Assembly (NCBI GenBank): GCA_039683575.1
Contig: JBDKRC010000331.1
Span: forward strand, 1-56,460
Length of the DNA: 56,460 bases
Origin: Armatimonadia bacterium
GTDB taxonomy: Bacteria; Armatimonadota; Zipacnadia; Zipacnadales; UBA11051
Direction of reading: 5' to 3'
The translations under genes and the position numbers were made by a program. Shown here piece by piece: positions 1-26,637 of this stretch. The notes under the pieces were generated by a model. The model did no database searches and was not told the origin of the DNA. It saw only the letters and a list, made by a program, of their open reading frames with translations. Position 1 is the stretch's first letter, and each line of letters begins with the position of its first letter.

Positions 1-34
1 CCCGAGCGGGGGGGTACGTGCCCCCGCCCTACAG
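1..34. repeat. Partial GTAG-type REP doublet (family A), cut by the window edge
   Basis: cccgagcggggggg tacgtgcccccgccctacag matches the right half of the elements at 7941, 28617 and 48811. Confidence 0.7.
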
Positions 35-66
35 TAGACGTGTCACCACCTTCCGGAGGGACCACC

Positions 67-714
67 TTGAACCGAGAAGACATCCTCAAAGCCCTCGCCG
101 AGGCCGTCATAGACATGGACGAAGACCGTGCCCGTGAACTCGCCGAGGCCTCGTTGGTCGCGGGTATGGAGGCCTACGACACCATCGCGCATGGCTTGGC
201 AGCGGGCATGGAAGTGGTCAGCGAGAAGTACGACCAGGAGGAGTATTTCGTCCCCGAAATCCTGCTGTGTTCGGATGCGATGTACGCCGCTCTCGAGATC
301 CTGCGGCCTCACCTGAAGGCCGAACAGACTGGCAGTGGGACCGTGGTGATCGGCGTCATCGCCGGCGACATCCACGACATCGGCAAGAACATCGTCAAGA
401 TGATGCTGGAGGGCGCGGGGCTGCAGGTCCACGACCTGGGCCGCGACGTCCCAGTGCAGCGGTTTGTGGACGAGGCCGAGCGCCTGAACGCCAATATCAT
501 CGCGATCTCCACCCTGATGAGCACCACAATGGAGGGCATGCGGCTGGTGGTTGAGGAATTGACCCGGCGCGGCATCCGCGAGAAGTTCAGCGTCATGATC
601 GGCGGCGGCCCGATCTCCCAGGACTTCGCCATGAAGATCGGCGCCGAGGCCTACGGCCGCGACGCTTCAGAAGCCATCCGCGTTGCGCGGCAACTGCTGG
701 AGGCCGCCTCATGA
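67..714 (+). CDS. Corrinoid (B12-binding) protein of a methyltransferase system, MtaC/MtbC-like
   Basis: B12 cap domain (YFVPEILL), DxHxxG motif (GDIHDIGKNIV), STLM and IGGGP motifs; probable TTG start at 67 after GGAGGG (ORF track starts at 40). Confidence 0.9.
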   Translation: MNREDILKALAEAVIDMDEDRARELAEASLVAGMEAYDTIAHGLAAGMEVVSEKYDQEEYFVPEILLCSDAMYAALEILRPHLKAEQTGSGTVVIGVIAGDIHDIGKNIVKMMLEGAGLQVHDLGRDVPVQRFVDEAERLNANIIAISTLMSTTMEGMRLVVEELTRRGIREKFSVMIGGGPISQDFAMKIGAEAYGRDASEAIRVARQLLEAAS

Positions 715-2883: not shown

Positions 2884-4317
2884 ATGACCAAACAGGAACT
2901 GCTGCGCAATCTGCCCTCGATAGACCGCCTCCTGAGCGACCCGCACGTTGCCTCGCTTGCCGAGGAACACGGCCATGAACTGGTCGTGTGGCTGCTGCGA
3001 CGCGAGTTGGAGGCACTGCGCGCGCGGATTCTGGGGGGCGAGGACGTCACTGATGTCGCAGCGACGGTCCTGCAGGCACTTGAGGCTTCGCTGCGACTTT
3101 CGTTACGCCATGCCGTGAATGCCGCGGGTGTGGTGCTTCACACCGGTCTCGGGCGCGCGATGCTGGCCCCGGCAGCCGTCGAGGCCGTGCATGACAGCAT
3201 TCGCGGATACTGCACTCTCGCCACCGACGCCGAGCAGGGCAAGCGGATGTCCCGCGATCAACACCTGAGGGACGTGCTCTGCGAACTCACCGGGGCTGAG
3301 TCCGGTACTTTCGCCAACAACAACGCCGCGGCGACCATGCTGGTGCTCAATACGCTCGCCCAGGGCAAGGAAGTCATCGTCTCGCGCGGGCAACTCGTCG
3401 AGATCGGCGGCTCCTTCCGCATGCCCGAGGTCATGGAAATGAGCGGGGCCACCATGCGCGAGGTAGGCACCACTAACAAGACGCACCTGAATGACTACGA
3501 GCGGGCCATCAACGAGAACACCGGCGCGCTTTTGCGTGTCCACCAGAGCAACTACCGCATCATGGGCTTCACTTCCGAGCCGGGGATCGAGGAACTGGTG
3601 GCGCTGGGCGACAAGCACGGCCTGCCGGTGATTGATGACCTCGGCAGCGGAGCACTGATTGACCTCAGCCAGTTCGGGCTGGAGCGCGAGCCACTGATCC
3701 AGGAGAGCGTCAGAGCCGGGGCGGCGGTGGCGTGCTTCAGCGGCGACAAGCTCATCGGCGGTCCGCAGTGCGGCATCATGGTCGGCAAGCGCGAGATCAT
3801 CGAGCGCATCAAGAAGAACCCTCTGGCCAGGGCGCTGCGCATCGGCAAAATGACTGTAGCGGCCCTGGAGGCCACACTGAGGCTGTTTCTCGATGAAGAC
3901 CACCTGTGCGAGAAGCACCCGACGTACCGCATGTTCTCGCTCCCGCTGGAGGGCTTGAAGGCACGCGCGGAGGCACTGGCGGCGAAAATGGGGACTGACC
4001 CCATTTTCACGATCAGCCATGAGGACGATGGTTCCCTTGCGCTGAAAATGGGGTCTGTCCCCGTTTTCGCTCTGCGCATCATCGAAAGCGAGACCGAAGT
4101 CGGCAGTGGCTCGGTGCCGACACAGACCCTCCCGACGTGGGCGGTAGCCGTGCAGCCGCAGGGCATGGCACCGGAAGAGCTGGCCCGTCGCCTCCGCTAC
4201 CACGAGCCGCCCATCTTTGCGCGCATCCACAGAGACAGTGTCCTGTTTGACCTGCGAACCATTCAGCCGGAGGAGGACGAACTGGTGGCGGCGGCTCTGC
4301 GGAGTGTACTGCAGTGA
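2884..4317 (+). CDS. selA: L-seryl-tRNA(Sec) selenium transferase
   Basis: LRNLPSID N-terminus, VNAAGVVLHTGLGRA, NNNAAA, SRGQLVEIGGSFRMP, EVGTTNKTH, PLP lysine motif FSGDKLIGGPQCG; start MTKQ at 2884. Confidence 0.97.
   Translation: MTKQELLRNLPSIDRLLSDPHVASLAEEHGHELVVWLLRRELEALRARILGGEDVTDVAATVLQALEASLRLSLRHAVNAAGVVLHTGLGRAMLAPAAVEAVHDSIRGYCTLATDAEQGKRMSRDQHLRDVLCELTGAESGTFANNNAAATMLVLNTLAQGKEVIVSRGQLVEIGGSFRMPEVMEMSGATMREVGTTNKTHLNDYERAINENTGALLRVHQSNYRIMGFTSEPGIEELVALGDKHGLPVIDDLGSGALIDLSQFGLEREPLIQESVRAGAAVACFSGDKLIGGPQCGIMVGKREIIERIKKNPLARALRIGKMTVAALEATLRLFLDEDHLCEKHPTYRMFSLPLEGLKARAEALAAKMGTDPIFTISHEDDGSLALKMGSVPVFALRIIESETEVGSGSVPTQTLPTWAVAVQPQGMAPEELARRLRYHEPPIFARIHRDSVLFDLRTIQPEEDELVAAALRSVLQ
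3984..4068. repeat. In-frame palindromic doublet inside selA (GAAAATGGGG-N5-CCCCRTTTTC, twice)
   Basis: gaaaatgggg actga ccccattttc at 3984-4008 and gaaaatgggg tctgt ccccgttttc at 4044-4068, 60 nt apart; translated as KMGTDPIF and KMGSVPVF. Confidence 0.8.
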
Positions 4318-5882
4318 TTGATCCCGAAAAGCGCCGCCGCGTGATGGAGCGCTCCATTGCCCTCGGCCACTGTATCTGCAACCCCAAGAAGCCCTGCCCG
4401 TGCGATCTGTTCGCCGAGCGGGACCTCTGCCTCTGCGCCGGTGAGCGGCCCGAGGATGCCCCCGAGACCGTCGCGCTGACTTCCCTCGTAAAGAACGCGG
4501 GTTGTGCCTCGAAGATCAACCAGAACGACCTCAAGCGCGCCCTCGGGGACCTGCCGCAGATCAGCCACCCACGGGTGCTGGTGGGCTCGAATACTGGCGA
4601 TGACGCCGGCATCTACCAGCTCAATGATGAACTCGCACTCGTGCAGACCGTGGATGTCTTCACCCCCGGCGTGGACGACCCCTACACCTTCGGCCAGATC
4701 GCAGCGGCCAACTCCCTGAGCGATGTCTACGCCATGGGCGGCCAGCCCCTGACGGCGCTGGCGATCATCGGCTTCCCTATCGAGAACCTCAGCCCGCGGA
4801 TCATGACCCAGATCATGCGGGGGGGACAGGACAAGATGCAGGAGGCGGGCGTGCCCATCGTCGGCGGGCATAGCATCAACGACCTCGACGTGAAGTTTGG
4901 CTTCTCCGTGACGGGGCAGGTCCATCCGCAGCGCATCGTCACCAATGCCACGGCCCAGCCGGGCGATTCGCTGATCCTGACCAAGCCCCTCGGCGTGGGC
5001 ATCATCAGCTTTGCGGCTCAGCTAGACCGCGCTACGGCCCAGGCAATGGATGCTGCGGCCTATTCAATGAAAACCTTAAATAGATTCGCCGCCGAGTTGA
5101 TGATCGAGCACGGCGTGCGCTGTGGCACGGATGTGACCGGCTTCGGGCTGCTGGGACACCTCAGCGAAGTGGCGCGGCAGAGCGGCGTCACGGCCGAGGT
5201 CTGGGCAGATCGGGTACCGATGTTTGACGAGGCACTTCAATACGCCCGTGAGGGCCTGCTCTCAGGGGCCATGGAGCGCAACCGCGAGTATGCGGGGCAG
5301 TTCGTGCAGGTGGCGCCGGGTGTGGCCGAGGAGCGCGTGAACGTGTTGTACGACCCGCAGACCTCAGGCGGGCTGCTGATGGCGGCCCCGCCGGACGTGG
5401 CGGAGGAGATAGTCCGACGCCTGCACGAGGCGGGCCAGACGACGGCAGCGATCATCGGGCGCATTACCGAGCAGTCGGAGGGCAAGATCGTGATCAAGAA
5501 CGAGGGCGAGCAGGAAAGCTGCTGCTGCAGCGCGGCGGCTGAGAGTTGCTGTGAGGATGAGCCAGTCGAGGAGCCCTGCTGTGCCGAGGGGAGCCCCTGC
5601 TGCGCCGGAGGCGGCGGCGAGTCGAGCCTTACCAGCATCCGCGAAGCTTTCGGGGCGTTCATGGGCGAGGTGAACTCGCCGGGGGCGCTGGGGCTGCGGG
5701 AGAAGGAACTCGTCTCGGTGGCGCTGTCGGTGCTGTCGAAGTGCGAGCCCTGCGTGAAGATCCACGTGAAGAAGGCGTGCGAGGCGGGGCTGACGCAGGC
5801 GGAGGTTGACGAGGCGGTGTGGATGGCGATCGCCTTCGGCGGGGCCCCGACTATGATGTTCTACAACGGCATCCGGAAGTAA
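4314..5882 (+). CDS. selD: Selenide, water dikinase (Cys form) with a Cys-rich N-terminal extension, a poly-Cys linker and a C-terminal AhpD/CMD-like domain
   Basis: AGCASK active site, DDAG, QTVDVFTP, FGQIAAANSLSDVYAMGG, LTKPLG, TDVTGFGLLGH, DPQTSGGLL; C-terminal KELVSVALS..KCEPCVKIH is CMD-like. Confidence 0.95.
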   Translation: MIDPEKRRRVMERSIALGHCICNPKKPCPCDLFAERDLCLCAGERPEDAPETVALTSLVKNAGCASKINQNDLKRALGDLPQISHPRVLVGSNTGDDAGIYQLNDELALVQTVDVFTPGVDDPYTFGQIAAANSLSDVYAMGGQPLTALAIIGFPIENLSPRIMTQIMRGGQDKMQEAGVPIVGGHSINDLDVKFGFSVTGQVHPQRIVTNATAQPGDSLILTKPLGVGIISFAAQLDRATAQAMDAAAYSMKTLNRFAAELMIEHGVRCGTDVTGFGLLGHLSEVARQSGVTAEVWADRVPMFDEALQYAREGLLSGAMERNREYAGQFVQVAPGVAEERVNVLYDPQTSGGLLMAAPPDVAEEIVRRLHEAGQTTAAIIGRITEQSEGKIVIKNEGEQESCCCSAAAESCCEDEPVEEPCCAEGSPCCAGGGGESSLTSIREAFGAFMGEVNSPGALGLREKELVSVALSVLSKCEPCVKIHVKKACEAGLTQAEVDEAVWMAIAFGGAPTMMFYNGIRK

Positions 5883-5888
5883 AGTCAT

Positions 5889-6010
5889 CGCGTGGGAGGC
5901 ATGCTCCGCATGCCGGACTCAGTGAGCATGTTCCGGCACACGAGGTGTGCCTACCACGCGGAGAGATGGAAAGAGACGAGTTCCGGCATGCGGAGCATGC
6001 CTACCACGCG
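5889..6010. repeat. Palindromic repeat cluster (family D) between selD and selB
   Basis: cgcgtgggaggcatgctccgcatgccgga ... tccggcatgcggagcatgcctaccacgcg inverted arms with a degenerate internal copy. Confidence 0.7.
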
Positions 6011-6021
6011 AAGAGGAAACA

Positions 6022-7929
6022 ATGCCAGACGAACTCCAACAAATCATCATCGGCACCGCCGGGCACATTGACCACGGCAAGACCGCGCTCGTGAAGGCGC
6101 TGACCGGCGTGGATGCCGATACGCTTGAGGAGGAGAAGCGGCGCGGGATCACCATCGAGCTTGGGTTCGTATTCATGCCTCAGGCTGCCGGGGATGACAG
6201 GCAGATCGTCTTCATAGACGTGCCCGGCCACGAACGGCTGGTCAAGACGATGGTTGCCGGGGCGAGTAACCTTGACGCCGTGATGCTGATCGTCGCGGCT
6301 GATGAGGGCGTTGCGGCACAGACTCGTGAGCATTTTGACATTCTCAAGCTCCTGGGCATGACGCGGGGGCTGGTGGCGCTGACTAAGGTGGACCTCGTGG
6401 ACGAGGCGCGGCGCGAGCAGGTCACGAACGAGGTCAGAGGCTACCTCAGCGGCAGCTTCCTTGCGGACGCGCCTATCACGCCGGTCTCGGCGGTCACCGG
6501 CGAGGGCGTCCAGGAGCTGCGGACGGCGTTGCAGGCGCTGGCGGCGACCGTTGAGCCGCGGACGGACAGCGGCGTGTTCCGCATGCCTGTGGACCGTGTC
6601 TTTACCATGCATGGTTTTGGCACGGTGATCGCCGGGACGGTGCTGGCGGGGTCAGTGCGGGTGGGCGACCAGGTGGAGATACTTCCGGAGGGGTTGCGGA
6701 CACGCGTACGGGGCATACAGGTGCATGGGGCGAAGACAGAGGTGTCGGGGCTGGGAGCGCGGACGGCGCTGAATGTGCCGGATGTGAAGAAGGAGGACCT
6801 GCGGCGGGGCCAGACGGCAGCGGCGCCGGATTCGCTCAAGCCCACGCAGCGCCTCGACGCCCAGCTATACCTGTTGCAAACCGCAGACGAACTCAAGCAC
6901 CGGGCGCGGTTGCGGCTGCACATCGGCACCGACGAAGTCATCGCACGCGTGGCACTGCTCGATCGCGAGCGGCTCCTTCCGGGCGAGACAACCACCGTGC
7001 AGTTCATCCTTGAAGCCTCAACCGTGGCCGTGCCGCGCGATCGCTTCGTGGTGCGTACCTTCTCGCCGCTGCAGACCATTGGCGGCGGGACGATCCTCGA
7101 TGCCCACCCAGAGAAGCACAAGCGGTTCGATGAGGACGCGCTGGAGGGGCTGACCCAGCTTGAGGGCGACCTCGGGCAGGTGATCGCGCAACAGGCTCTG
7201 AAGGCCGGAGCGGTGCCGCAGAAGCTGGCCGACTTCGTTGCCGCTACGGGAGCGGGTGAGCCGGAGGTGGCTGCAGCGGTCGCTCAGCTTGTTGAGGCGG
7301 GGCGACTGGCAGCGGTGCGAGAGGACTATCTCCATGCAGAAGTGCTCGAGGACCTCGCAAGCAAGCTCCACCATGCCTTCGCCGTCTACTACCAGAGAAG
7401 CCCGCAGAAGCTCTGGATGCCGCTGTCGGACCTGCAGGCGCAGGCGGCGAAGCTGATGCCCAAGCCGGTCTGGGAGGCGCTCTTCAGGCAGATGGTGACT
7501 GAGGGGACGCTCGTGCGCAAGGAGCAGCGCGTGCGGCCTGCTGACCGGCAGGTAGAGCTCAAGCCTCAGGAGCAGGAGTGGGCCGAGCGGGTAGCCAGGG
7601 CATACCAGGCTGCGGCATTCTCAACCCCTTCAGAAGAGGAAGTGCGCGCGGAACTGAAAATCCCCGAGGCGGCGTTTGCAGGTGTAATGACCGCGCTGAC
7701 GGAACAAGAGACCCTCATCCGCGTCAGTGACAAAGTCATCTACCATGTCGAGCCGCTGAATCAGCTTCGCGAGAAGGTAGCGGCACTGATTCGCGAGCGA
7801 GGCAGCATGACGGTGGCGGAGTTGCGTGACGAATTGGGTATCTCGCGCAAGTACGCGCTGGCAGTGATGGAGTACTTTGACGCAGTGGGGCTGACGAGGC
7901 GCGAGGGGGACGCGCGGGTGTTGGCGTAG
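6022..7929 (+). CDS. selB: Selenocysteine-specific translation elongation factor
   Basis: [37 protein letters not shown]-domain motifs; C-terminal SECIS-binding winged helix [14 protein letters not shown]. Confidence 0.97.
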
Positions 7930-7940
7930 AGACGGCTCTG

Positions 7941-8019
7941 CTGTAGGGCGGGGGCTCGTACCCCGCCGGCCGTCGTCCACGATCACCCGAGCGGCGGGGT
8001 ACAAGCCCCCGCCCCACAG
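7941..8019. repeat. GTAG-type REP doublet (family A)
   Basis: ctgtagggcgggggctcgtaccccgccg ... cggcggggtacaagcccccgccccacag inverted pair. Confidence 0.85.
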
Positions 8020-8035
8020 CCCGAGTGCGGCAGAC

Positions 8036-8131
8036 GGAGGAGTCAGGGTTCCGGTGGGCCTCCTGGGCTTCAAACCCAGTGTGGGGCTCGAGAGAGTCCC
8101 GGGTGGGTTCGACTCCCACACTCCTCCGCCA
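8036..8131 (+). tRNA. selC: tRNA-Sec (anticodon UCA)
   Basis: 8-bp acceptor stem GGAGGAGT/ACTCCTCC, anticodon arm CTGGG-CT-TCA-AA-CCCAG (TCA at 8070-8072), long variable arm, T arm GTGGG-TTCGACT-CCCAC, G discriminator then CCA; lies directly after selB. Confidence 0.97.
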
Positions 8132-8191
8132 GATTCAGTGGTCAGTTGGCAGTGGTCAGTTAACGGCGGGAGGCAAAGGCAAGACAAAGGC

Positions 8192-8221
8192 AAACGCCCG
8201 ACCATTGGCCGGGCGTTTTTT
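8192..8221 (+). terminator. Rho-independent terminator between selC and the convergent gene, probably bidirectional
   Basis: AAACGCCCG-accattggc-CGGGCGTTT followed by a T run. Confidence 0.8.
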
Positions 8222-8233
8222 GGTTCTTTGAGT

Positions 8234-8252
8234 AGCGCGCGCACGGCGCGCT
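8234..8252 (-). promoter_or_regulatory. Candidate bacterial SECIS hairpin for the TGA at 8270-8268
   Basis: Minus strand AGCGCGC-CGTGC-GCGCGCT; the stem starts 15 nt and the loop 22 nt after the TGA; GU at loop positions 2-3; distinct from the terminator. Confidence 0.55.
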
Positions 8253-8255
8253 GGG

Positions 8256-8657
8256 TTACTTGCCCCCTCACCCACCGGTCTTCGGCTTAGTAATGAGGAC
8301 TGTGCTGGTTGGGGCTTCCCACTTCACACCGCAGCCCAACCGAGTGCTCATCAGGCGTAGCGGCAGGTAGATGCTGCCGCCAATCGTGAGCCCCTCGGAT
8401 CCGGAGATACGGGCGATTTTACCACACAGGACCACAGTCGCAGATTTGGTGTTGGGGTTCCACTTCACGCTGCCGCCCAGAGCCTGAACTCCGCTGCGCA
8501 GTGGGACATATGTCGTGCCGGCGCGCTCTATGGCTGGCGGAGTGACCGTCACCGCCTTGCCGTCGACATTCATCTTCACCGGCTTGTCAGCAGCCTGTGC
8601 GCCTGCAACGACCACGAGCAACGCGAGCAGCACCAATACCGGCATGAGGCTTTTCAT
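8256..8657 (-). CDS. Exported copper-amine-oxidase N-terminal (stalk) domain protein; predicted selenoprotein ending GG-U-GGK
   Basis: Signal peptide; GTTYVPLR..LGGSVKWN and IYLPLR..LGCGVKWE stalk motifs; the ORF-track stop TGA (8270-8268) is followed by GGG GGC AAG TAA. The domain call is firm, the Sec readthrough is inferred. Confidence 0.7.
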
Positions 8658-8793
8658 GGCGTTACCTCGAACGGATATGCCTTGTCATTCTTAGCGAAGC
8701 GGGTAATCTCCAAGGCATCTTACCAAATGACATGGACTTATACAACCCGCCAGAGTTCGGTTCGTTCCCCAGGAGGAAGAAGATGATGAAGAA

Positions 8794-8819
8794 GGAACCT
8801 TGAGGATGCGCATTTGTCA
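8794..8819 (+). promoter_or_regulatory. Possible ECF sigma-factor promoter
   Basis: GGAACC-N16-GTCA, 45 nt upstream of the ATG at 8865. Confidence 0.3.
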
Positions 8820-8864
8820 GCTATATGTATGCCTTGATGAGTCGCTTGCTGGGAGGGGCCGACC

Positions 8865-10631
8865 ATGCATCGGAAAGCGTTTGTGCTCGTGCTGCTGGCC
8901 GTCTTGACTGCCTGCCTTGCCTATGCCGCTCCTGCCCCTCCTCCCGCACCTCCCCCTCCCGGATACGGGCCCGGAGGCCCCAAAGGCGCCCTGTCCCCCT
9001 CCGGCATAGCCGGGACTGTCGTGAACGCCGCTGGCCAGCCACTCGCCGGCGTGACGGTCTTCAACAACGGCGATGGCCCAGTGGAGCTCAAGGCCCGAAC
9101 CGATGCGGCCGGGCGGTTCCTGCTCAAAGGCTTCGTTCTGACCCCGGGGGCGTTTGTCTTTGTGGAGCAGCCGTGCTACCACTTCTACGGCGGGTACTTC
9201 AGCCTCGGGACCAAGGACGCGAAGATCGTCCTCACTCCCGCCGATGGGCAGCGTCCGGCCGTGACGTTGCAGCCCCAGCGCGAGGATCTCGAGTATCGCC
9301 GCGAACTGGCGCAGAAGCTTGTGGACAAGGGCATGGCCCTTATCAAGAGCGATCCCAAGGACCCGAACTACCTTCTCCTCGCGTACGCGGCAATACAGCT
9401 CGACCCCACCAAAGCCCCTACACTGACCTCCGACCCGCTCAAGCGGCGCACACTCTTCCTGCTGATTGACCGCCTAAGCGACTTGGCCCCCGAGGAAGTC
9501 ATCCAGTCCACGAGCCAGTACAACCGTTGGACCGCCATGTACTACCTGCTGAAGTGGTCGCGGCGGCCGGAGGTGCGCAAGAACCCTGCGGTCGAGGCGC
9601 AGATGCTGCAGGAGGTCATCACCTTCAGCCGCGATGACGAGCCGAGAGTGTTGCAGGCACTGACTTACCGGACGGAGGCGGCAGGACGCCTGCTCGAACT
9701 TGGCTACCCCGAGGCGCGGCAGGTGCTCGACCGCGACTTGCCGCTCGTATCGAAGCTGCCGTTCAGCCTGGACGACTACGAGACGGCACGGGTGGTGATG
9801 GTCTTCGCCCAGGCGTACTACCTCGTGGACCCGGAGAAGGCACTGGCGCTGGTGAAGGGCCCGGCGAACTCACCGTACAATCTGGAAGACATGACGCGAC
9901 AGAAGCTGGGGGTGCGGCGGGCGCGGAAGGACCCCGATGAGGGGCTGAGGGTGTACCCCAGGCGGAGCGCCAACGAGCCGCAGCAACTCAGCGACATCGC
10001 AATGGCAGCGGCCATCGCCGAGACCGATCCGGCTCGCGCCGAGGCTTTTGCGCGAGAGATCGCGGATGCCCAGGTGAAGGCGCTGGCGTTGGGTGAAGTC
10101 GCGGCCGCCCTGATACCGACCGATCGGGAGCGGGCACGCAAGCTGTTTGGCGAGGCGTACCAGATGATGAGCGCCAAGTCCGCGGGGGAGCAACGCGGGT
10201 ATTTCACGCCCGGGCTGATGCTGGCCTCATTGGCGGTCATGATGCGCGATGCCGATCCCGCGATGGCCTACGAGGCGATGATGCGGGGCCTGTCCCGGCG
10301 GTCGCCGGTGGGCAGGAACCCGAACGACGAGTACATGACTTCCGTTCTGGTGCAGGCCGCGCAGAAGGTGGACGCGCCGACGGCGCGGCGGCTGCTGCGG
10401 CTGCCGGAGGACCCCAGCGCCGACCAGGTCATGGCGCTGACGAGAGACAGTTGGGCCTACCCGGGGCTGGCGGCGGATGTACTGTTGGAGGCAAGCCAGG
10501 CGGCCGGGAACGAGGGCCTCAATGCGAGCGTGTATGGCCAGATGACGATGCAATTGCTGCGGGACGAGGCCTTCCAGTGGACGTACTTCGCGGGCGACTG
10601 GACGCAGTACCTGAGTGATTCGTACGAGTGA
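8865..10631 (+). CDS. Exported protein: Pro-rich linker, carboxypeptidase-regulatory-like domain, alpha-helical solenoid C-terminus
   Basis: GGAGG RBS, signal peptide, PPPAPPPP, IAGTVVNAAGQPLAGVTV..TDAAGRF motif, then Ala/Leu-rich helical repeats. Confidence 0.8.
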   Translation: MHRKAFVLVLLAVLTACLAYAAPAPPPAPPPPGYGPGGPKGALSPSGIAGTVVNAAGQPLAGVTVFNNGDGPVELKARTDAAGRFLLKGFVLTPGAFVFVEQPCYHFYGGYFSLGTKDAKIVLTPADGQRPAVTLQPQREDLEYRRELAQKLVDKGMALIKSDPKDPNYLLLAYAAIQLDPTKAPTLTSDPLKRRTLFLLIDRLSDLAPEEVIQSTSQYNRWTAMYYLLKWSRRPEVRKNPAVEAQMLQEVITFSRDDEPRVLQALTYRTEAAGRLLELGYPEARQVLDRDLPLVSKLPFSLDDYETARVVMVFAQAYYLVDPEKALALVKGPANSPYNLEDMTRQKLGVRRARKDPDEGLRVYPRRSANEPQQLSDIAMAAAIAETDPARAEAFAREIADAQVKALALGEVAAALIPTDRERARKLFGEAYQMMSAKSAGEQRGYFTPGLMLASLAVMMRDADPAMAYEAMMRGLSRRSPVGRNPNDEYMTSVLVQAAQKVDAPTARRLLRLPEDPSADQVMALTRDSWAYPGLAADVLLEASQAAGNEGLNASVYGQMTMQLLRDEAFQWTYFAGDWTQYLSDSYE

Positions 10632-10670
10632 TGAGGCGGGGGCTGAGACGGCCGAGACGATGACAAACGC

Positions 10671-10754
10671 TGTCATCCTGAGCGGCGGACGTCCACGTCC
10701 GCAAGCGAAGAGTCTCCGCCACCGCGGGGATGCTTCACTTCGTTCAGCATGACA
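10671..10754. repeat. TGTCATCCTGAGCG...CAGCATGACA palindromic element (family E)
   Basis: Same terminal motifs as copies at 46919-46998 and 47055-47139; degenerate copy at 8683-8731. Confidence 0.8.
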
Positions 10755-10786
10755 GACTTTGGGCTCATTCAATCGGGGGTCACACA

Positions 10787-12133
10787 ATGCGCAAGTACAT
10801 CTGGCTGGCTGTACTGACGGTCTCGGCGGCGCAGGCTGCCGGGTTGCGGTTTGTGGACCAGTGGGAGCGCGATGGGCTCCCGGTGGTGCCCACAAATATC
10901 CTGAACCTCTATGCACAACCGCCGGAGAAGTTCGCATCGCTCCCGCCGGACGCCCCGGCCCAGCGGTACACCCTCTGCTGGCCCATCGGCGCGGGGCAGG
11001 CGGCCGCTGCCCCTGACAAGGACCGCTGGATGAGCTTCATGATGGACGCGGACCCCGCGCATCGGGAGTTCCTGTGGGTTGACACCAATCGCAACTGGGT
11101 CTTCGAGCCGGGCGAGAAGTACGCGCTGGGCGACCTGAAGTGGGGCGACAAGACCATTCGCGGCTTCGAGACCCCAATCGACATCGGCGGTGAGCCGGCG
11201 ACGCGCACGCTGCGGGTGTGGCTCGGGACGTTCCCCGGTACGCTGCTCGTGTCGCTCAGGGGCTACTGCGCCGGGACCGTGGAGCTAGGCGGCAGAGAGG
11301 TCGCAGCGTTGCTGGCCGATGCCGACATGGACGGCCGCTTCGCTACCCTCGGCCGGGACCTGATCTTCCTCGACCTGGACGGCAACGGCAAGTACTTCAT
11401 CGCCACCGAGCGCTACCCGCTGGCCGAGAAGCTGCGGCTGGACGGCAAGACGTACGCAATGCAGTACTCACCCAATGGTGCCAGCGTCGCCGCAACTGAG
11501 ACGTATCTCGGGCAGGGGACGGTGCGCTTTGCGCTCAAGGGTGCGGGCAACAAGCCAGTGATGGCGACGTTGCGGCGTGATGACGGTGAGGTGGTGGCGG
11601 CGGGCAAGCTGGGCGAGCCGGTGACGGTGCGTGAGGGTACATGGACCATGTTCACGCTTGCGAACCTGCGGATGCAGGAGGGCGCGCGGACGTGGTCTTA
11701 CAGCTTCAGCCGCCACTCCGGTGAGTTATCGAACCTCTCGCCGTTGGTAGTCAAGCCGGGGCAGGAGACCACGTTTGACCTGCTCGGGCCGATCAAGCTG
11801 ACCATGAACGGAGTGCAGGCCACAGCGAAGCCGGGGGATCAGGTGAATGCTCAGGTGGGCTTCACGAGCGCGACGGGAATGGACGTGCGGTCGCAAAGCA
11901 GCGGACCGAGCACGCGCGACTCCGATGAGCCGAAACTAGAACTGAAGCTACTGGACGGCAAGTTTGCAGTTAGGGCGCAGGGCCGCATGGGCTTTGGGTG
12001 AGGCGGCGGGTGCAGTGGCTCCCTGGCGTTGCCAGCGGACTTGAAGCCGGGCAAGTACCATGTAGTCGCACTGATACCGACGGGCCCCCTCGCGGGGACA
12101 CTGCGGGCGGAGACGGCGGTGGAGGTGAAGTAG
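10787..12133 (+). CDS. Exported 448-aa predicted selenoprotein with a C-terminal U-G-G-G-C motif
   Basis: Signal peptide MRKYIWLAVLTVSAAQA; DxDxDG-like Ca-binding motifs; in-frame TGA at 11999-12001 followed by 43 codons (GGGCSGSLALPADLKPGKYHVVALIPTGPLAGTLRAETAVEVK), TAG at 12131-12133, then a terminator. Confidence 0.85.
12020..12039 (+). promoter_or_regulatory. Candidate bacterial SECIS hairpin for the TGA at 11999-12001
   Basis: TCC-CTGGC-GTT-GCCAG-c-GGA; the apical loop begins with GU, 27 nt after the TGA. Confidence 0.7.
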
Positions 12134-12154
12134 AAGCAGGGGGATCGCGAATCC

Positions 12155-12190
12155 AAGAGGGGCCGCGCTTCAAGCGTCGGCCCCTCTTTT
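12155..12190 (+). terminator. Rho-independent terminator
   Basis: AAGAGGGGCCG..CGGCCCCTCTT followed by T run, 21 nt after the readthrough TAG. Confidence 0.8.
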
Positions 12191-12203
12191 GTCGTCTACC
12201 ATT

Positions 12204-14207
12204 CTACGGCAGGAAGTTGTACATCCTCATGTGGAGGAAGTTGCCTAACACACCCCAGATCGCCCCGGCGCTGAACTCCCCCAGGATCAGGCCCATGAAG
12301 AACATCGAGGCCGGGCGGAAGGCGCCCATGCCCCCGTAGCGCAATATCAGGACCTTCAGCAGCCAACTCATCAAGATCGAGGGCGCAAACAGCGCCATCG
12401 AGAAGCTCCCCGATACCGCAAATCCCGCCGGGTGCAGCGGCCACCAGGTGAAATTGGTCCGCAGCGCCGCCAACGCCACTGTCACCCCGAGACCCACGAA
12501 TACAGCGATAGTCGCATGCCAATTGGTCGTCGGCGGACTCTCGATCCACGACTGCAGCCGCGAGAAGGCCTCCTGGCCCTTGTAGGCCCAGCCCTCGCCC
12601 CCCTGGCGGAAGAACGCATCCAGCAGTATCCCCCACCCGCAGATCAGCCCCAGGGCGGTGGCGAGCGTCAGAGCAACCGCCAGCCCGCTCTGAGCCGTAT
12701 TGGTAAGGCTCGCCAACTTCATACCCTCGATCTGGTTAGGCATCGGGTGACTGCGGTGAGCGCGGTTAATGGACCAGAAGAACGAGAACATGATGAGGTT
12801 GTTGACCCCAAGACGGCGGGGTCCGGCCATCTCAGTCAGCACGGCTTCGGGACCGATCTTGTGCAGGTCATGCACCGGCGAGCCAAGCTCGGCGCGGATG
12901 CGGGCGACGGCGATTGAGATGCCCAGATAGAGCAACAGGAAGGCCAGCGCGAGCCACAGGCTCATGCCCGCGTGCAGGCAGAAGGCGACCAGCAGCCCCA
13001 ACCCCACCAGCAGCGCCCAGACAGTGAAACGGTACGAGAAGGCCTCGCGGCTGTCGTCCTCGGTGCGCTTGCCCATGGCGGCTTCGAGCGCGGCGACGAG
13101 ATGGTGGCGGCTGGAGTATAGCGAGAAGAACGCCAGCGCCAGGTAGGCGCCAAAGGACTGCTCGTCAATCCAGGGGGCGCGCGGGATGCGCCCCCAGCCG
13201 GCCGCCGCTACTGCCACGCGCACGATTTTCCAGAAGATGTAGAAGAACCACGAACTGAAGGCGAGGTCGGTGGGGATGAAGAACGCGAGACCCACGCCGA
13301 AGGGGAAGATGTTCAGCGGCGTCCAGCCGATGGAGCGCCAGGGCATGGTTTTGATGATCTGGCCGAGGTCATAGGCGGCGCTGCGCTCGCCCATGAGGTT
13401 GGGGACGCGCGGGTAGAGCAGATGCAGGCCGTTGACCGCGTCGATGAAGAAGGCTATCCCGAAGCCGATCCACATGAGCCTGCTGCTCCACAGCGGGGTC
13501 TCCGGGCGGGTCATCTCGAGCGGAAGTTGCACGATCGGGAAGCTGAGCTTGGCCTCCTCGGTCCACTGCTTCCGGAAGAGGTTGTTCAGCGCCAGCATCA
13601 CGAAGATCAGGGTGAACGAGAACCCCGACCACCAGGCAGCCGGCACCATCCATTGCCGCCAGTAGGGGGTGGCGAACAGGGGCTGGTTGCTCTCGAAGTA
13701 GGCCCACAGCGCGCGTTCATCGGTGACGGTCAGCCACGGCGGAATCTTCTGGAGGAATAGCTGCTCCCAATGGTTCTCAGGCGTGGCGTGCCAGAACGGG
13801 TGTGCCACGACCGGTATCATGGTCTGCAGCTGATCGAGGCCGCACACGGCGCTGGAGATGGCGAGCATGGCGTAGATGACCAGCAACTCGCCCTGGCGCA
13901 ACGCCCACCGCGGGGAAATGCGGCGCAGGAGGGCATTGAGCCCACAGACCAAGAGCAGCGTGACGATGACATTGAAATAGAGTGAAACGGTGGTAGGGCG
14001 GCTCTGGCCCCAGATGTAGCCCCAGAGGATGAACCAGGCATTGGGCGGGATGAGCAGCAGGCCGATGACGACCGCGCGGACGGTCACCGGAGCGGGAGCG
14101 GGAGTCGGGGAGGGTGAGGCTGCAGTGGATTGTGGTGTGGAGTGGGCGGCGATGGCCGGAGGCTCCTTTGCCTGAGTGAGCGGCATGCGGTTCGCCACCG
14201 GACACAC
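12204..14207 (-). CDS. Polytopic membrane protein, DUF6785/DUF6784-like (putative peptide transporter)
   Basis: Many hydrophobic segments; ELLVIYAML, KQWTEEAKLSFPIVQLPLEM, WWPLHPAGF and LILRYGG..FFMGLILGE motifs; GTG start after AGGAGG. Confidence 0.75.
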   Translation of the reverse strand: MCPVANRMPLTQAKEPPAIAAHSTPQSTAASPSPTPAPAPVTVRAVVIGLLLIPPNAWFILWGYIWGQSRPTTVSLYFNVIVTLLLVCGLNALLRRISPRWALRQGELLVIYAMLAISSAVCGLDQLQTMIPVVAHPFWHATPENHWEQLFLQKIPPWLTVTDERALWAYFESNQPLFATPYWRQWMVPAAWWSGFSFTLIFVMLALNNLFRKQWTEEAKLSFPIVQLPLEMTRPETPLWSSRLMWIGFGIAFFIDAVNGLHLLYPRVPNLMGERSAAYDLGQIIKTMPWRSIGWTPLNIFPFGVGLAFFIPTDLAFSSWFFYIFWKIVRVAVAAAGWGRIPRAPWIDEQSFGAYLALAFFSLYSSRHHLVAALEAAMGKRTEDDSREAFSYRFTVWALLVGLGLLVAFCLHAGMSLWLALAFLLLYLGISIAVARIRAELGSPVHDLHKIGPEAVLTEMAGPRRLGVNNLIMFSFFWSINRAHRSHPMPNQIEGMKLASLTNTAQSGLAVALTLATALGLICGWGILLDAFFRQGGEGWAYKGQEAFSRLQSWIESPPTTNWHATIAVFVGLGVTVALAALRTNFTWWPLHPAGFAVSGSFSMALFAPSILMSWLLKVLILRYGGMGAFRPASMFFMGLILGEFSAGAIWGVLGNFLHMRMYNFLP

Positions 14208-25749: not shown

Positions 25750-26637
25750 ATGAAGACCACAAACCGCTTCATCGTCACCATGGACGACCCCGGCGGGTTG
25801 ATCCAGGACCTCGCCACCTTCGAGCGCGCCCGCAGGTTCTTCGATAGCCAGAATGTCCCGGCCAGCTTCATGGTTGTGCCTCGTGGCGAGGGGGACTGGC
25901 TGCTCGACCAGCAGTCGCAGTGGCTTGAGGCGCTGCACTCAGCGGAGCAGGACGGGCATGACTGCCAGCTTCACGGTCTGGACCACAAGGACTGCGAGTT
26001 TGGGCCCTATCCGGCCATGATCCGCGCTCTGCATGGTACTGACCCCGAATCTGTCCTGCAGTCCGACACCGCTCAGTTCGGGCACACGTGGCACTACGCC
26101 TCATATCTCGGCAAGCTGAGGACCGCGCTCGAGATCTTTGGGCGCGCCTTCGATCGCCGTCCGCTGGTGTTCCGCACGGGGGCGCTCTCGCAGACGCCTG
26201 AGCTTTACGACGCTGCTGCCGATGTCGGCCTGCGGTATACCTCCAACCGCGTAGTTGACCCTCGTGGCTGGGAGTACATCGTCGAGAACTACGACAACCC
26301 CGGCGACTGGGACCCGGCTGTCCCCCCTCTCCCCTATCACCTCAACGACCGCGTCATCAACCTCCCCATGATCAGTGAGTACGCGTGGTACCTGACCGAG
26401 GAGAAGATCGACCGCCACCTGGCCCTCGCCCTCGACGACCTCCAGCGCGTATACGCGACCGGCGGCGTCTACGTCCTCATCTGCCACGTGCAGTGTGTGG
26501 GCGCCGAGGACGGCCTGTCGCAAAAGCTCCTGAGCAGGCTCTTTGAGGCGGCGCGGGCCAACTACGACGTTCAGTTCCAGACGCTCAGTGGGCTGGTTTC
26601 GGATGTGGAATTAGGCGCCGTACCTGTCCTGTCGTAA
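25750..26637 (+). CDS. Polysaccharide deacetylase-like protein (DUF2334/NodB fold)
   Basis: VTMDD, FMVVP, QLHGLDH, FRTG motifs. Confidence 0.75.
   Translation: MKTTNRFIVTMDDPGGLIQDLATFERARRFFDSQNVPASFMVVPRGEGDWLLDQQSQWLEALHSAEQDGHDCQLHGLDHKDCEFGPYPAMIRALHGTDPESVLQSDTAQFGHTWHYASYLGKLRTALEIFGRAFDRRPLVFRTGALSQTPELYDAAADVGLRYTSNRVVDPRGWEYIVENYDNPGDWDPAVPPLPYHLNDRVINLPMISEYAWYLTEEKIDRHLALALDDLQRVYATGGVYVLICHVQCVGAEDGLSQKLLSRLFEAARANYDVQFQTLSGLVSDVELGAVPVLS

Follow-up and report, generated by a model that had tools for sequence, protein, structure and literature searches.

A selenocysteine-decoding locus in an Armatimonadia bacterium and its likely exported selenoprotein clients

Bacterial selenoproteomes are described mainly as redox enzymes, formate dehydrogenase foremost. 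Here we report on an Armatimonadia metagenome-assembled genome that apparently lacks an FdhA-type client and carries a complete bacterial set for selenocysteine (Sec) decoding (selA, selD, selB and tRNA-Sec). The window, meaning the whole stretch of DNA analysed, is 56,460 nucleotides long, and the Sec set is followed by three genes whose products begin with signal-like hydrophobic stretches. We consider it likely that exported selenoprotein genes surround the decoding set and that SelB reads their UGA codons by way of a minimal SECIS. The decoding genes and those upstream are as follows.

1-714, plus strand: B12-binding protein gene (Pfam PF02310/PF02607), open at the contig start
711-1745 and 1752-2792, plus strand: two URO-D/MtaA-like methyltransferase-family genes (PF01208), directly upstream of selA
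2884-4317, plus strand: selA, L-seryl-tRNA(Sec) selenium transferase (TIGR00474, 547.9 bits against a cut-off of 267.9, E 1.8e-164; PF03841)
4314-5882, plus strand: selD, selenide-water dikinase (TIGR00476, 385.5 bits, E 1.7e-115)
5947-7929, plus strand: selB, Sec-specific elongation factor (TIGR00475, 373.4 bits, E 2.2e-111)
8036-8131, plus strand: selC, tRNA-Sec with anticodon UCA (ARAGORN; Rfam RF01852, 73.7 bits, E 2.5e-14)
8192-8218, both strands: bidirectional intrinsic terminator, with a 12-bp stem on the minus-strand listing and a plus-strand T-run read directly

SelB carries the winged-helix SECIS-binding domains (PF09107, PF09106). SelD has Cys, not Sec, in its active site, and its reading frame (4314-5882) holds no in-frame TGA; its C-terminus is a fused AhpD/CMD domain with a CxxC (PF02627, residues 444-515), and the sequence reads as having a Cys-rich N-terminal extension and a Cys-rich linker. 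In a genome of the same genus (G002, locus L064) the B12-binding and methyltransferase genes lie upstream of selA in identical order. The features downstream of the Sec set, among them two genes in which a TGA may encode Sec, are listed next.

8256-8657, minus strand: candidate 1, a 133-residue secreted Cu_amine_oxidN1 protein by readthrough translation (PF07833, E 7e-16)
8234-8252, minus strand: putative SECIS of candidate 1, lying in the 3' UTR 15 nt past the UGA and made up of a 7-bp GC stem and the pentaloop CGUGC
8865-10631, plus strand: 588-residue signal-peptide protein (CarboxypepD_reg PF13620, E 1.7e-6, under the Pfam cut-off)
10787-12133, plus strand: candidate 2, a 448-residue secreted all-beta selenoprotein of family A, from homologue comparison and readthrough translation
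12020-12038, plus strand: SECIS of candidate 2, stem CUGGC/GCCAG and loop GUU, within the coding sequence
12158-12191, plus strand: terminator-like GC stem and T-run 3' of candidate 2, read directly

A sequence-only reading of this DNA had described the sel genes as followed by three signal-peptide genes; all are present, and the first of them (8657-8256) is on the minus strand, which that reading did not mention. Its two TGA contexts (GG-U-GGK and FG-U-GGGC), with in-frame TAA or TAG beyond, are as it gave them, and so are the GC hairpin with a GU-containing loop behind each TGA (CGUGC in candidate 1, GUU in candidate 2) and the separate terminators, at 8218-8192 on the minus strand and at about 12158-12191 for candidate 2. 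The latter stem is missing from a terminator scan because its loop exceeds the limit of the scan. The 588-residue gene (8865-10631) contains no internal TGA; beyond the weak CarboxypepD_reg match its product has a long remainder with no family match, and tblastn found no significant matches to it beside the family-A genes of relatives.

Candidate 2 places Sec at U405 (codon 11999-12001, motif GFG-U-GGGC) and ends at an in-frame TAG (12131-12133). A frame that stays open when TGA is read as U is not evidence in itself. The closest entry in databases is listed as a 'hypothetical protein' of 404 aa and so is cut at the TGA. RNA-library contigs from one study cover both candidate genes, and one of them spans 11908-12140, across the candidate 2 UGA, with no differences, DNA carry-over being possible in either observation. 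The hairpin has a 5-bp stem and its GU at positions 30-31, counted from the U of UGA; its single-sequence fold is not better than shuffles (z +0.99). Because that fold does not stand out and the G-TGA-G context is not rare (196 of 13,304 ORF-ending TGAs in the genome, all frames), the case leans on relatives and not on the window alone.

Candidate 2 has a match in 9 of 41 genomes searched (G000 and 40 relatives), and seven of the eight relatives concerned have TGA in the same column, exactly one each, with the match continuing as far as residues 445-447; G006, the remaining one, has Cys-Cys at the Sec site, and no selA match was found in this genome (96% complete). TGA or Cys in one column, with conserved residues beyond it, is the pattern that the sequence-only reading had looked to for a genuine client. 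The 40 residues 3' of the TGA are conserved among the relatives, and S-V-R-[VI]-P...PG.Y...GP motifs are kept after U across phyla (alignments A1, A4). In a phylum sample of 301 genomes, 34 of the 36 listed matches that reach profile position 419 or beyond contain one TGA and two contain none. The 34 are distributed over 29 genomes, and TGA forms accompany selA, which was found in 28 of those 29 against 156 of the 301 overall; the exception without a selA match is G218 (86% complete).

The family extends well beyond this phylum, to Verrucomicrobiota, where it occurs in tandem arrays, Planctomycetota and others. Its members are signal-peptide or membrane-anchored all-beta proteins that bear, in a beta-sandwich domain at the C-terminus, the motif [FY]-G-U-G-G-x-C, whose Cys stands four residues after Sec, and some are fused to membrane sensors that we take, from an HExxH...H motif, to be of BlaR1/M56 type. 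A profile search returned 2078 clusters (50% identity) at E<=1e-3 and 146 at E<=1e-30. Among the best 150 clusters, 80 stop exactly one residue before the Sec column, a further 35 end no more than 16 residues from their own end, and 12 continue past; 10 of the 12 full-length database representatives carry Cys in the motif, as judged by eye. Candidate 2 has no Pfam or NCBIfam match (searched at E<=0.01), and neither database holds a model for the family. As these searches read, family A is very large, unmodelled and mostly cut at the TGA in databases. The proposal of an envelope selenoprotein locus whose clients pass as truncated hypothetical proteins is supported by the homologues, by the co-occurrence of TGA forms with selA, by the hairpin covariation given below, by the 404-aa nearest entry and by the lack of a family model for candidate 2.

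The hairpin is shared as well. In the family-A consensus a stem of 6-7 bp carries a pentaloop of the CGUG[C/A] type; the G-U of this loop lies some 25-26 nt beyond the U of UGA, and the element overlaps the post-Sec codons, typically S-V-R. The candidate 2 hairpin is shorter and displaced by about 5 nt. Across 34 distinct aligned family-A sequences (A2) the stem co-varies, with compensatory change in seven of seven pairs (31 cells); the observed values were reached by none of 500 shuffles, and every slid register scores lower. A covariance model built on the family recovers two family-A genes from contig C343 on which it had not been trained (54.2 and 39.0 bits), and gives 32.6 bits to the SECIS of candidate 2, which was among its training sequences. 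On this comparative evidence candidate 2 is almost certainly a genuine selenoprotein, whose UGA SelB would decode through a mini-SECIS lying within the next codons. We find a variant genetic code, SECIS-independent readthrough or gene decay extremely improbable: TGA terminates most genes here, including selB, the 588-residue gene and thousands of ORFs; family-A members have one TGA each, in a constant column, with a co-varying hairpin and selA present; and purifying conservation persists past the TGA across phyla.

AF2 models candidate 2 as all-beta sandwich (pLDDT 88.9 for the whole protein, 89.6 for the Sec domain), with Sec in a turn that joins two strands, and the last macroglobulin/Ig-like sandwich domain of family A would present Sec in such a tight turn. 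The best structural match is Salmonella alpha-2-macroglobulin (Z 10.9, rmsd 2.7, 98 residues), and fold searches return generic Ig/macroglobulin-like sandwiches only, which are uninformative on chemistry. Two identities were considered and rejected. An alpha-2-macroglobulin/thioester protein does not fit, the likeness being of a single domain in a protein of 448 residues with no A2M family in Pfam; nor does a thioredoxin-fold redox selenoprotein, as AF2 models all-beta sandwiches, not alpha/beta.

Candidate 1 lies convergent with tRNA-Sec, sharing with it the terminator at 8192-8218. Its PF07833 match (58.6 bits against a cut-off of 24.2) falls in two stretches, and its tail reads ...KTGG-U-GGK, with the Sec codon at 8270-8268 and TAA at 8258-8256. 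Here Sec, in a glycine-flanked C-terminal tail, would be decoded by the hairpin past the TAA, which has its GU at positions 27-28 from the U of UGA and a CGUGC loop identical to that of the family-A SECIS. As readthrough adds just three residues, the gene offers almost no downstream protein conservation. The same distance of three codons between TGA and TAA would suit an ordinary stop, the hairpin then being a stabilising or REP-like 3' element before the shared terminator. Under the family-A covariance model this hairpin scores a non-significant 12.2 bits (E 1.2, the level of background hits), GC-rich palindromic repeats are frequent in the genome (e.g. at 7940-8020 and at contig ends), and such hairpins were seen behind 5 ORF-ending TGAs where about 2 are expected by chance, a rough estimate.

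The homologues point in both directions. Ten of the 20 homologous loci inspected lack a Sec-like tail and stop at TAA or TAG, an ending that the sequence-only reading held would speak against a Sec codon; four homologues keep a UGA tail and hairpin. The orthologue in G002, at 35% identity, has the ending SAGG-U-GG-stop, a stem changed by compensation and the same loop; in G004 the ending is PT-U-GG-stop, and its hairpin scores 22.2 bits (E 0.01) with the model of family A, a different family; G022 and G027 have ...C-x-P-S-G-U-... tails, with the hairpin in both. No Cys-for-Sec homologue was seen in the 20 loci, glycine-rich tails without Sec are present among the homologues, and no selA match was found in G027 (84% complete), one of the TGA-tail versions. 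What tells against an ordinary stop is that orthologues at about 35% identity retain UGA-GGG-GG and an in-frame stop two to three codons on, that their hairpins are equidistant, with compensating stems and a constant CGUGC loop, that this loop is the one found in verified SECIS elements of the same genomes, and that the gene adjoins tRNA-Sec. We regard the ordinary stop as rather unlikely, and candidate 1 as probably a selenoprotein on this pattern of tails and hairpins.

Our observations are consistent with canonical SelB/SECIS genes, of which E. coli fdhF (SECIS loop positions G23 and U24) is the archetype: an in-frame UGA, an apical-loop G-U some 20-30 nt downstream, SelA, SelD, SelB and tRNA-Sec present, Cys homologues, and clients adjoining the machinery. 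The hairpins differ from the canonical SECIS in being very small (6-7 bp, pentaloop) and, in candidate 1, in sitting past the true stop in the 3' UTR; and where canonical clients are cytoplasmic or Tat-exported redox enzymes, these are exported beta-sandwich or tail-tagged proteins. Of the 'new system' that the sequence-only reading proposed, the adjacency of clients and machinery holds, the decoding is that of ordinary SelB/SECIS genes, and any functional tie beyond adjacency is inferred.

That adjacency recurs. Family-A genes adjoin selA in loci L060-L064, and 12 family-A loci contain selA, including records from Verrucomicrobiota, WS1 and Planctomycetota. The neighbouring contig C343 carries two more family-A members, a protein with a CPT-U tail and a NapH-like polyferredoxin, and cassettes of this type recur beside sel genes in other genomes, the CPT-U protein in seven loci and the polyferredoxin in seven. 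The latter combines PF12801 (Fer4_5; E 8.1e-18 at L065:1956-2723, E 2.4e-16 at L061:4039-4821) with a 4Fe-4S dicluster domain, as in NapH/CcoG-type membrane polyferredoxins, and its sequence shows motifs that we take to be those known as CX3CP. From this gene content we tentatively suggest that the U...C pair, the CPT-U protein and the polyferredoxin may form an extracytoplasmic selenol/thiol redox relay, for which the membrane polyferredoxin would supply electrons.

Animal thioredoxin reductase ends in the Sec tail GCUG, and redox selenoproteins with CxxU or UxxC are known. The proteins described here resemble them in placing Sec within a few residues of the C-terminus or of a partner Cys (CPT-U; U-GG-x-C), and in the exchange of Sec for Cys in homologues; they differ in lacking a thioredoxin or pyridine-nucleotide-disulfide-oxidoreductase fold, in being extracytoplasmic, and in having a NapH/CcoG-like polyferredoxin as partner, not a flavoenzyme. 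The selenoproteins could also be real and their clustering mere co-regulation, as with fdhA beside selAB in Proteobacteria, family A being surface/adhesin-like or metal-binding and the U...C pair binding metal or locking a loop, a possibility that we hold to be somewhat doubtful. Generic macroglobulin/filamin/Ig-like sandwiches are known from adhesins and S-layers, the tandem arrays of Verrucomicrobiota are typical of surface-protein expansion, some members are fused to the presumed BlaR1/M56-type sensors, and many have no adjoining polyferredoxin, only seven loci having one. Yet the U-x3-C spacing and the Cys-for-Sec homologues resemble redox systems, a CxxU tail protein and a NapH-type CX3CP/4Fe-4S membrane protein share the cassette across phyla, and Sec is costly and seldom retained for purely structural roles.

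A further idea departs from the glycine-flanked tails. SoxY is described as carrying its substrate on the Cys of a C-terminal GGCGG (PMC6067878). Like it, candidate 1 would be a small periplasmic beta protein with a reactive chalcogen residue between Gly-Gly pairs at the extreme C-terminus; the G002 tail, GG-U-GG-stop, is exactly the Sec analogue and that of the window, GG-U-GGK-stop, a near one, the likeness being of the tail only. The selenoproteins might then be chalcogen carriers that hold covalent S/Se intermediates in the envelope and possibly feed SelD, in keeping with the tight cross-phylum linkage with selD and selA and with the apparent lack of an FdhA-type client. This is improbable: in candidate 1 Sec replaces Cys and the domain is Cu_amine_oxidN1, not SoxY; neither candidate matches SoxY models, nor are there matches to SoxZ or other Sox families (Pfam/NCBIfam, E<=0.01); no SoxZ or other Sox genes were seen near the locus; and Sec-less glycine-rich tails occur in homologues.

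It is equally a long shot that the sel operon works together with its neighbours as a single unit, an envelope relay for selenium or chalcogen handling. In such a relay the CPT-U protein, anchored in the membrane, would be reduced by the NapH-like polyferredoxin and would itself service the G-U-GG-x-C beta-sandwich proteins and a GG-U-GG 'swinging-arm' carrier, the selenocysteine counterpart of SoxY; these two would bind and reduce external selenium or sulfur species, and selenide would pass on towards the Cys-rich SelD-AhpD fusion. If this were true, the selenoproteins would serve to acquire selenium for their own synthesis.

The decoding is canonical, and the client families appear to be undescribed in print. 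In this lineage the Sec machinery is seemingly retained for exported, non-enzyme-looking beta-sandwich and tail-tagged proteins, which gene callers truncate at the UGA and leave unnamed. Because the family-A profile finds 2078 clusters, most of them cut off at the Sec column, the use of selenium in Armatimonadota, in the Planctomycetota-Verrucomicrobiota group and in related uncultured phyla has probably been badly undercounted, and annotation pipelines need a family-A and mini-SECIS model. The cassette of CPT-U protein, NapH-like polyferredoxin and family A, often beside selA, selD and selB, offers a testable module and a candidate for extracytoplasmic selenium chemistry with no described counterpart.

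Candidate 2, a 448-residue protein whose frame continues through a UGA, is almost certainly a genuine selenoprotein, judging from comparison with its homologues. Its gene lies downstream of genes for the selenocysteine (Sec, U) machinery, in a region laid out as follows; NCBIfam and Pfam both recognize selA, selD and selB well over curated cut-offs.

2884-4317: selA
4314-5882: selD
5947-7929: selB
8036-8131: tRNA-Sec, found by ARAGORN and Rfam
8657-8256, minus strand: candidate 1 gene, convergent with tRNA-Sec; one bidirectional terminator serves both
8865-10631: middle gene, 588 aa, no internal TGA
10787-12133, plus strand: candidate 2 gene, containing the UGA

The G+C content of the region is 65%. 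SelD carries Cys rather than Sec at its active site and is a fusion that runs from about 50 Cys-rich N-terminal residues (motif H-C-I-C-N-P...C-P-C, also found in the SelD of relatives) through the SelD core and a linker with several CC pairs to an AhpD/CMD domain (CxxC); NCBIfam matches mark AhpD-like domains as a known selenoprotein family. All three genes downstream of the sel genes encode signal-peptide-like N-termini. The 588-aa middle gene does not come out as a conserved partner, its best tblastn match beside relatives' genes of candidate 2's family reaching only E 0.004. Directly upstream of selA are a B12-binding gene and two URO-D/MtaA-like methyltransferase-family genes (1-2792), an arrangement also seen in the same-genus genome G002 (L064 2580-5356); as pure speculation, these might carry out corrinoid-dependent methyl transfer linked to the metabolism of selenium, perhaps of methylated selenium compounds.

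The sequence-only reading had proposed that such clients would be annotated as truncated hypotheticals, and the nearest database protein, 97% identical and from an Armatimonadia metagenome-assembled genome (MAG), is indeed a 404-residue "hypothetical protein" corresponding to candidate 2 cut at its TGA. A protein database search with candidate 2 gave only two close matches. When the readthrough product (P0001, U405) was searched against the source genome and 40 relatives, nine of the 41 genomes matched, eight of them relatives at about 28% identity. Seven of these eight matches contain exactly one TGA, in a column common to all seven and within [FY]-G-U-G, with Cys four residues on in most and alignments extending to residues 445-447; the eighth (genome G006) has no stop and carries Cys-Cys at the Sec column. 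The 40 residues past this column are conserved in the alignment.

A profile built from the nine sequences of this family (family A, exported all-beta proteins with the motif [FY]-G-U-G-G-x-C) was then run against 1.84 billion cluster representatives; 2078 clusters reached E<=1e-3, of which 738 reached E<=1e-10 and 146 reached E<=1e-30. Among the best 150, 80 stop precisely at positions 400-404 of the profile, on the residue preceding the Sec column; a further 35 matches end within 16 residues of the representative's own end, 12 pass the Sec column, and 23 are fragments or other cases. By eye, ten of the 12 that pass have Cys in the motif (e.g. F-G-C-G-A-F-C) and two have another residue. In an evenly drawn sample of 301 genomes from the phylum, 34 of the 36 listed matches reaching at least profile position 419 hold one TGA (29 genomes) and two hold none. 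We found selA in 156 of the 301 sampled genomes versus 28 of the 29 that bear the TGA form, the sole exception being G218, which is 86% complete; the Cys-form genome G006 (96% complete) gave no selA match. The residue at the column, the conservation downstream of it and the co-occurrence with selA were the refutation tests set beforehand, and all therefore favour Sec in candidate 2.

The hairpin 3' of the UGA that SelB would read (SECIS) was compared across the family. In relatives, a stem of 6-7 bp bears the pentaloop CGUG[C/A], whose G-U occupies positions 25-26 counted from the U of UGA, and stems differ through compensating changes. An alignment with 34 distinct sequences of the family shows two-sided change at each of the seven pairs (31 cells), values that none of 500 shuffles attains, and each slid register scores lower. 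A covariance model from this alignment detects two family genes absent from it, both on contig C343 of the source genome (54.2 bits, E 2.5e-9; 39.0 bits, E 3.4e-6). Candidate 2's own hairpin is a weaker, shifted version (stem CUGGC/GCCAG, loop GUU, G-U at 30-31). Folded as a single sequence, it does no better than shuffles. The only Rfam match at E<=10 within 7500-12600 was tRNA-Sec, with none to a SECIS family. Across the source genome, 145 hairpins have a CGUG[ACU] loop on a stem of 6 bp or longer; five of these sit 21-28 nt past a TGA that closes an open frame of 80 codons or more, and three of the five belong to candidate 1, to a gene for a small protein with Sec in its C-terminal tail (CPT-U protein) and to a family-A gene.

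Contigs from three metatranscriptome libraries of a wastewater study cover both candidate genes, with DNA carry-over possible and expression levels not derivable from them. One of 233 bases spans 11908-12140, running across the UGA as far as the TAG, with no difference from the window; those over candidate 1 reach 8253-8548.

Candidate 1 is probably a selenoprotein as well, though with less assurance than candidate 2. This secreted protein of 133 residues has a Cu_amine_oxidN1 domain (PF07833, E 7e-16) and the tail ...KTGG-U-GGK-TAA; readthrough adds just three residues, so that the usual test of protein conservation is unavailable. Its hairpin, a 7-bp GC stem 15 nt past the UGA and between the TAA and the terminator, has the same CGUGC loop as the family-A SECIS. 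The first stop is TGA in ten of 20 homologous loci inspected, and five of those ten, the window included, show a Sec-like tail and a 6-7 bp hairpin at equal distance. The G002 homologue (35% identity) ends SAGG-U-GG-stop, with an identical loop on a different, compensating stem; tails in other relatives read PT-U-GG-stop (G004) and C-x-P-S-G-U... (G022 and G027). The family-A covariance model gives 22.2 bits (E 0.01) at the G004 site and only 12.2 bits (E 1.2, not significant) at candidate 1's own. No homologue with Cys in place of Sec was found among the homologous loci.

Further clients occur on C343 (L065 338-3085), in a cluster of four genes, each with a UGA and a hairpin.

First: CPT-U protein, small and membrane-anchored, tail ...ACPT-U-L-stop
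Second: polyferredoxin, NapH/CcoG-like membrane protein (PF12801, E 8.1e-18)
Third: family-A protein, two-helix-anchored, SYG-U-GGSC
Fourth: family-A protein, secreted, GFG-U-GGSC

We suggest that C343 probably adjoins the window's start, because both contigs have the same GC-rich palindromic repeat at their start and because G002 has the order two family-A genes, B12-binding gene, two URO-D-like genes, selA. One type of such repeat is present at window 1-40, at L065 1-120 and in the gap between selB and tRNA-Sec (7940-8020), and these repeats probably break the assembly at both contig starts. Paralogous DUF6785+DUF6784 membrane proteins adjoin both selenoprotein clusters (window 12204-14207, 667 aa; L065 4726-6723, 665 aa), and DUF2334/deacetylase-like genes lie near both (window 25750-26637; L065 3072-3932).

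The cassette of CPT-U protein, polyferredoxin and family A directly adjoins selA, selD and selB in three relatives (G221, G247, G295), and family-A genes adjoin selA in G004 and G002. Proteins ending CPT-U-[LGI]-stop occur in seven loci, as does the polyferredoxin. In five loci (L061-L063, L086, L103) the hairpin after the UGA of the CPT-U gene extends over the region of the start codon of the polyferredoxin gene that follows; from its position, one stretch of RNA would serve as both SECIS and translation start. A DNA pattern was scanned for in one genome per species, and 44 loci yielded 52 matches. Of these matches 34 pass a family-member filter; a few others are family members interrupted by contig ends, and the remainder were set aside as chance, among them Collinsella, Paenibacillus, Rhizobium and a Poribacteria repeat. 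The 34 come from records of Verrucomicrobiota (tandem arrays), Kiritimatiellota, Omnitrophota, Victivallales, WS1, Planctomycetota/Brocadiaceae and Armatimonadota. Twelve of the family-A loci examined contain selA, among them records of Verrucomicrobiota, WS1 and Planctomycetota. In L067, L079, L094, L100 and L106 (Verrucomicrobiota and unclassified MAG records), 2-5 short paralogues (about 250-310 aa, F-G-U-GG-x-C-G-Y-S-V-R-I-P-K-G) stand in tandem arrays, some of which directly adjoin selA, selD and selB. The Atlas yielded only unnamed clusters of 363-411 aa, commonest in Planctomycetota.

Elsewhere in the source genome, a PF00384 search gave a single match without an internal stop, and thus no FdhA-type selenoprotein was found. 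Two crude genome-wide UGA scans, too noisy or insensitive to describe the full selenoproteome, returned 622 and 23 candidates. One of these (C202:5170) consists in fact of two separate genes. The ORF C302:37607 (minus strand; L066), of 550 codons and with a DUF1559-like C-terminal region, has the tail PGGG-U-GG-stop and, after it, an 8-bp hairpin whose loop is GGU; it resembles a second GG-U-GG protein, but the tail appears in none of nine homologous loci of relatives, and it is at most a candidate. In C154:27463 (plus strand), which encodes a protein of the prepilin N-terminal-methylation type, GFG-TGA-GS precedes an open frame rich in proline, and an 8-bp hairpin lies 26 nt downstream; this may be one more gene that contains a UGA.

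Decoding directed by a hairpin, SelB and Sec-tRNA(Sec) is established, and we infer that the window's client genes use this canonical route: SelB with Sec-tRNA(Sec) would bind the mini-hairpin and insert Sec at the UGA. What the clients do is less readily read. Neither Pfam nor NCBIfam holds a sequence relative of candidate 2, and the domain profile, searched against PDB sequences, gave nothing below E 0.68. The AlphaFold2 model of candidate 2 (64-sequence alignment) is all-beta (pLDDT 88.9, pTM 0.80) and not a thioredoxin fold. In the C-terminal 116 residues, modelled separately (51 sequences, pLDDT 89.6), Sec sits in a turn between strands 63-71 and 77-82, and the partner Cys starts the next strand. 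Foldseek and VIA-align matched this domain only to macroglobulin/filamin/Ig-like sandwiches (Z 10.9 and rmsd 2.7 over 98 residues for Salmonella alpha-2-macroglobulin; TM 0.67 for MG2 of human alpha-2-macroglobulin), and the whole model only to generic tandem sandwiches. So common a fold carries no information on chemistry. The clients may be metal-binding or structural surface proteins. A carrier arm like that of SoxY, whose C-terminal end is given as GGCGG in PMC6067878, may be another alternative. Tentatively, we suggest an extracytoplasmic selenol/thiol redox relay, because U-x3-C lies in a turn and Cys forms occur in Sec-less genomes, because a CxxU tail protein and a NapH-type membrane polyferredoxin are found in one cassette, and because a positive-inside reading of the anchors puts the Sec domains outside the cytoplasm.

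The mechanism of decoding is known. No Pfam or NCBIfam model covers the client families, which appear solely as unnamed, truncated clusters. A 2026 review (PMC13188914) has no mention of Armatimonad-, periplasm, secreted, signal peptide, SoxY or copper amine, and deep-Sep (PMC12013277) and BSepDB (PMC13326102) have none of Armatimonad-. The client families go unmentioned in the literature searched, which included these three and PMC4807772 and did not extend to BSepDB's 111-family supplementary list; family A may already be catalogued in BSepDB. In P0107 and P0112 a Cys-form family-A domain is joined to a membrane domain at the N-terminus that, on our reading of its HExxH...H motif, resembles BlaR1/M56 signal-transducing peptidases; the fusions hint that a family-A domain can serve as an extracytoplasmic sensor module. 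New here are the occurrence of these proteins in Armatimonadota, the pairing of the Cys form with absence of selA, two tail-type candidates (GG-U-GG and CPT-U) and a recurring polyferredoxin partner.
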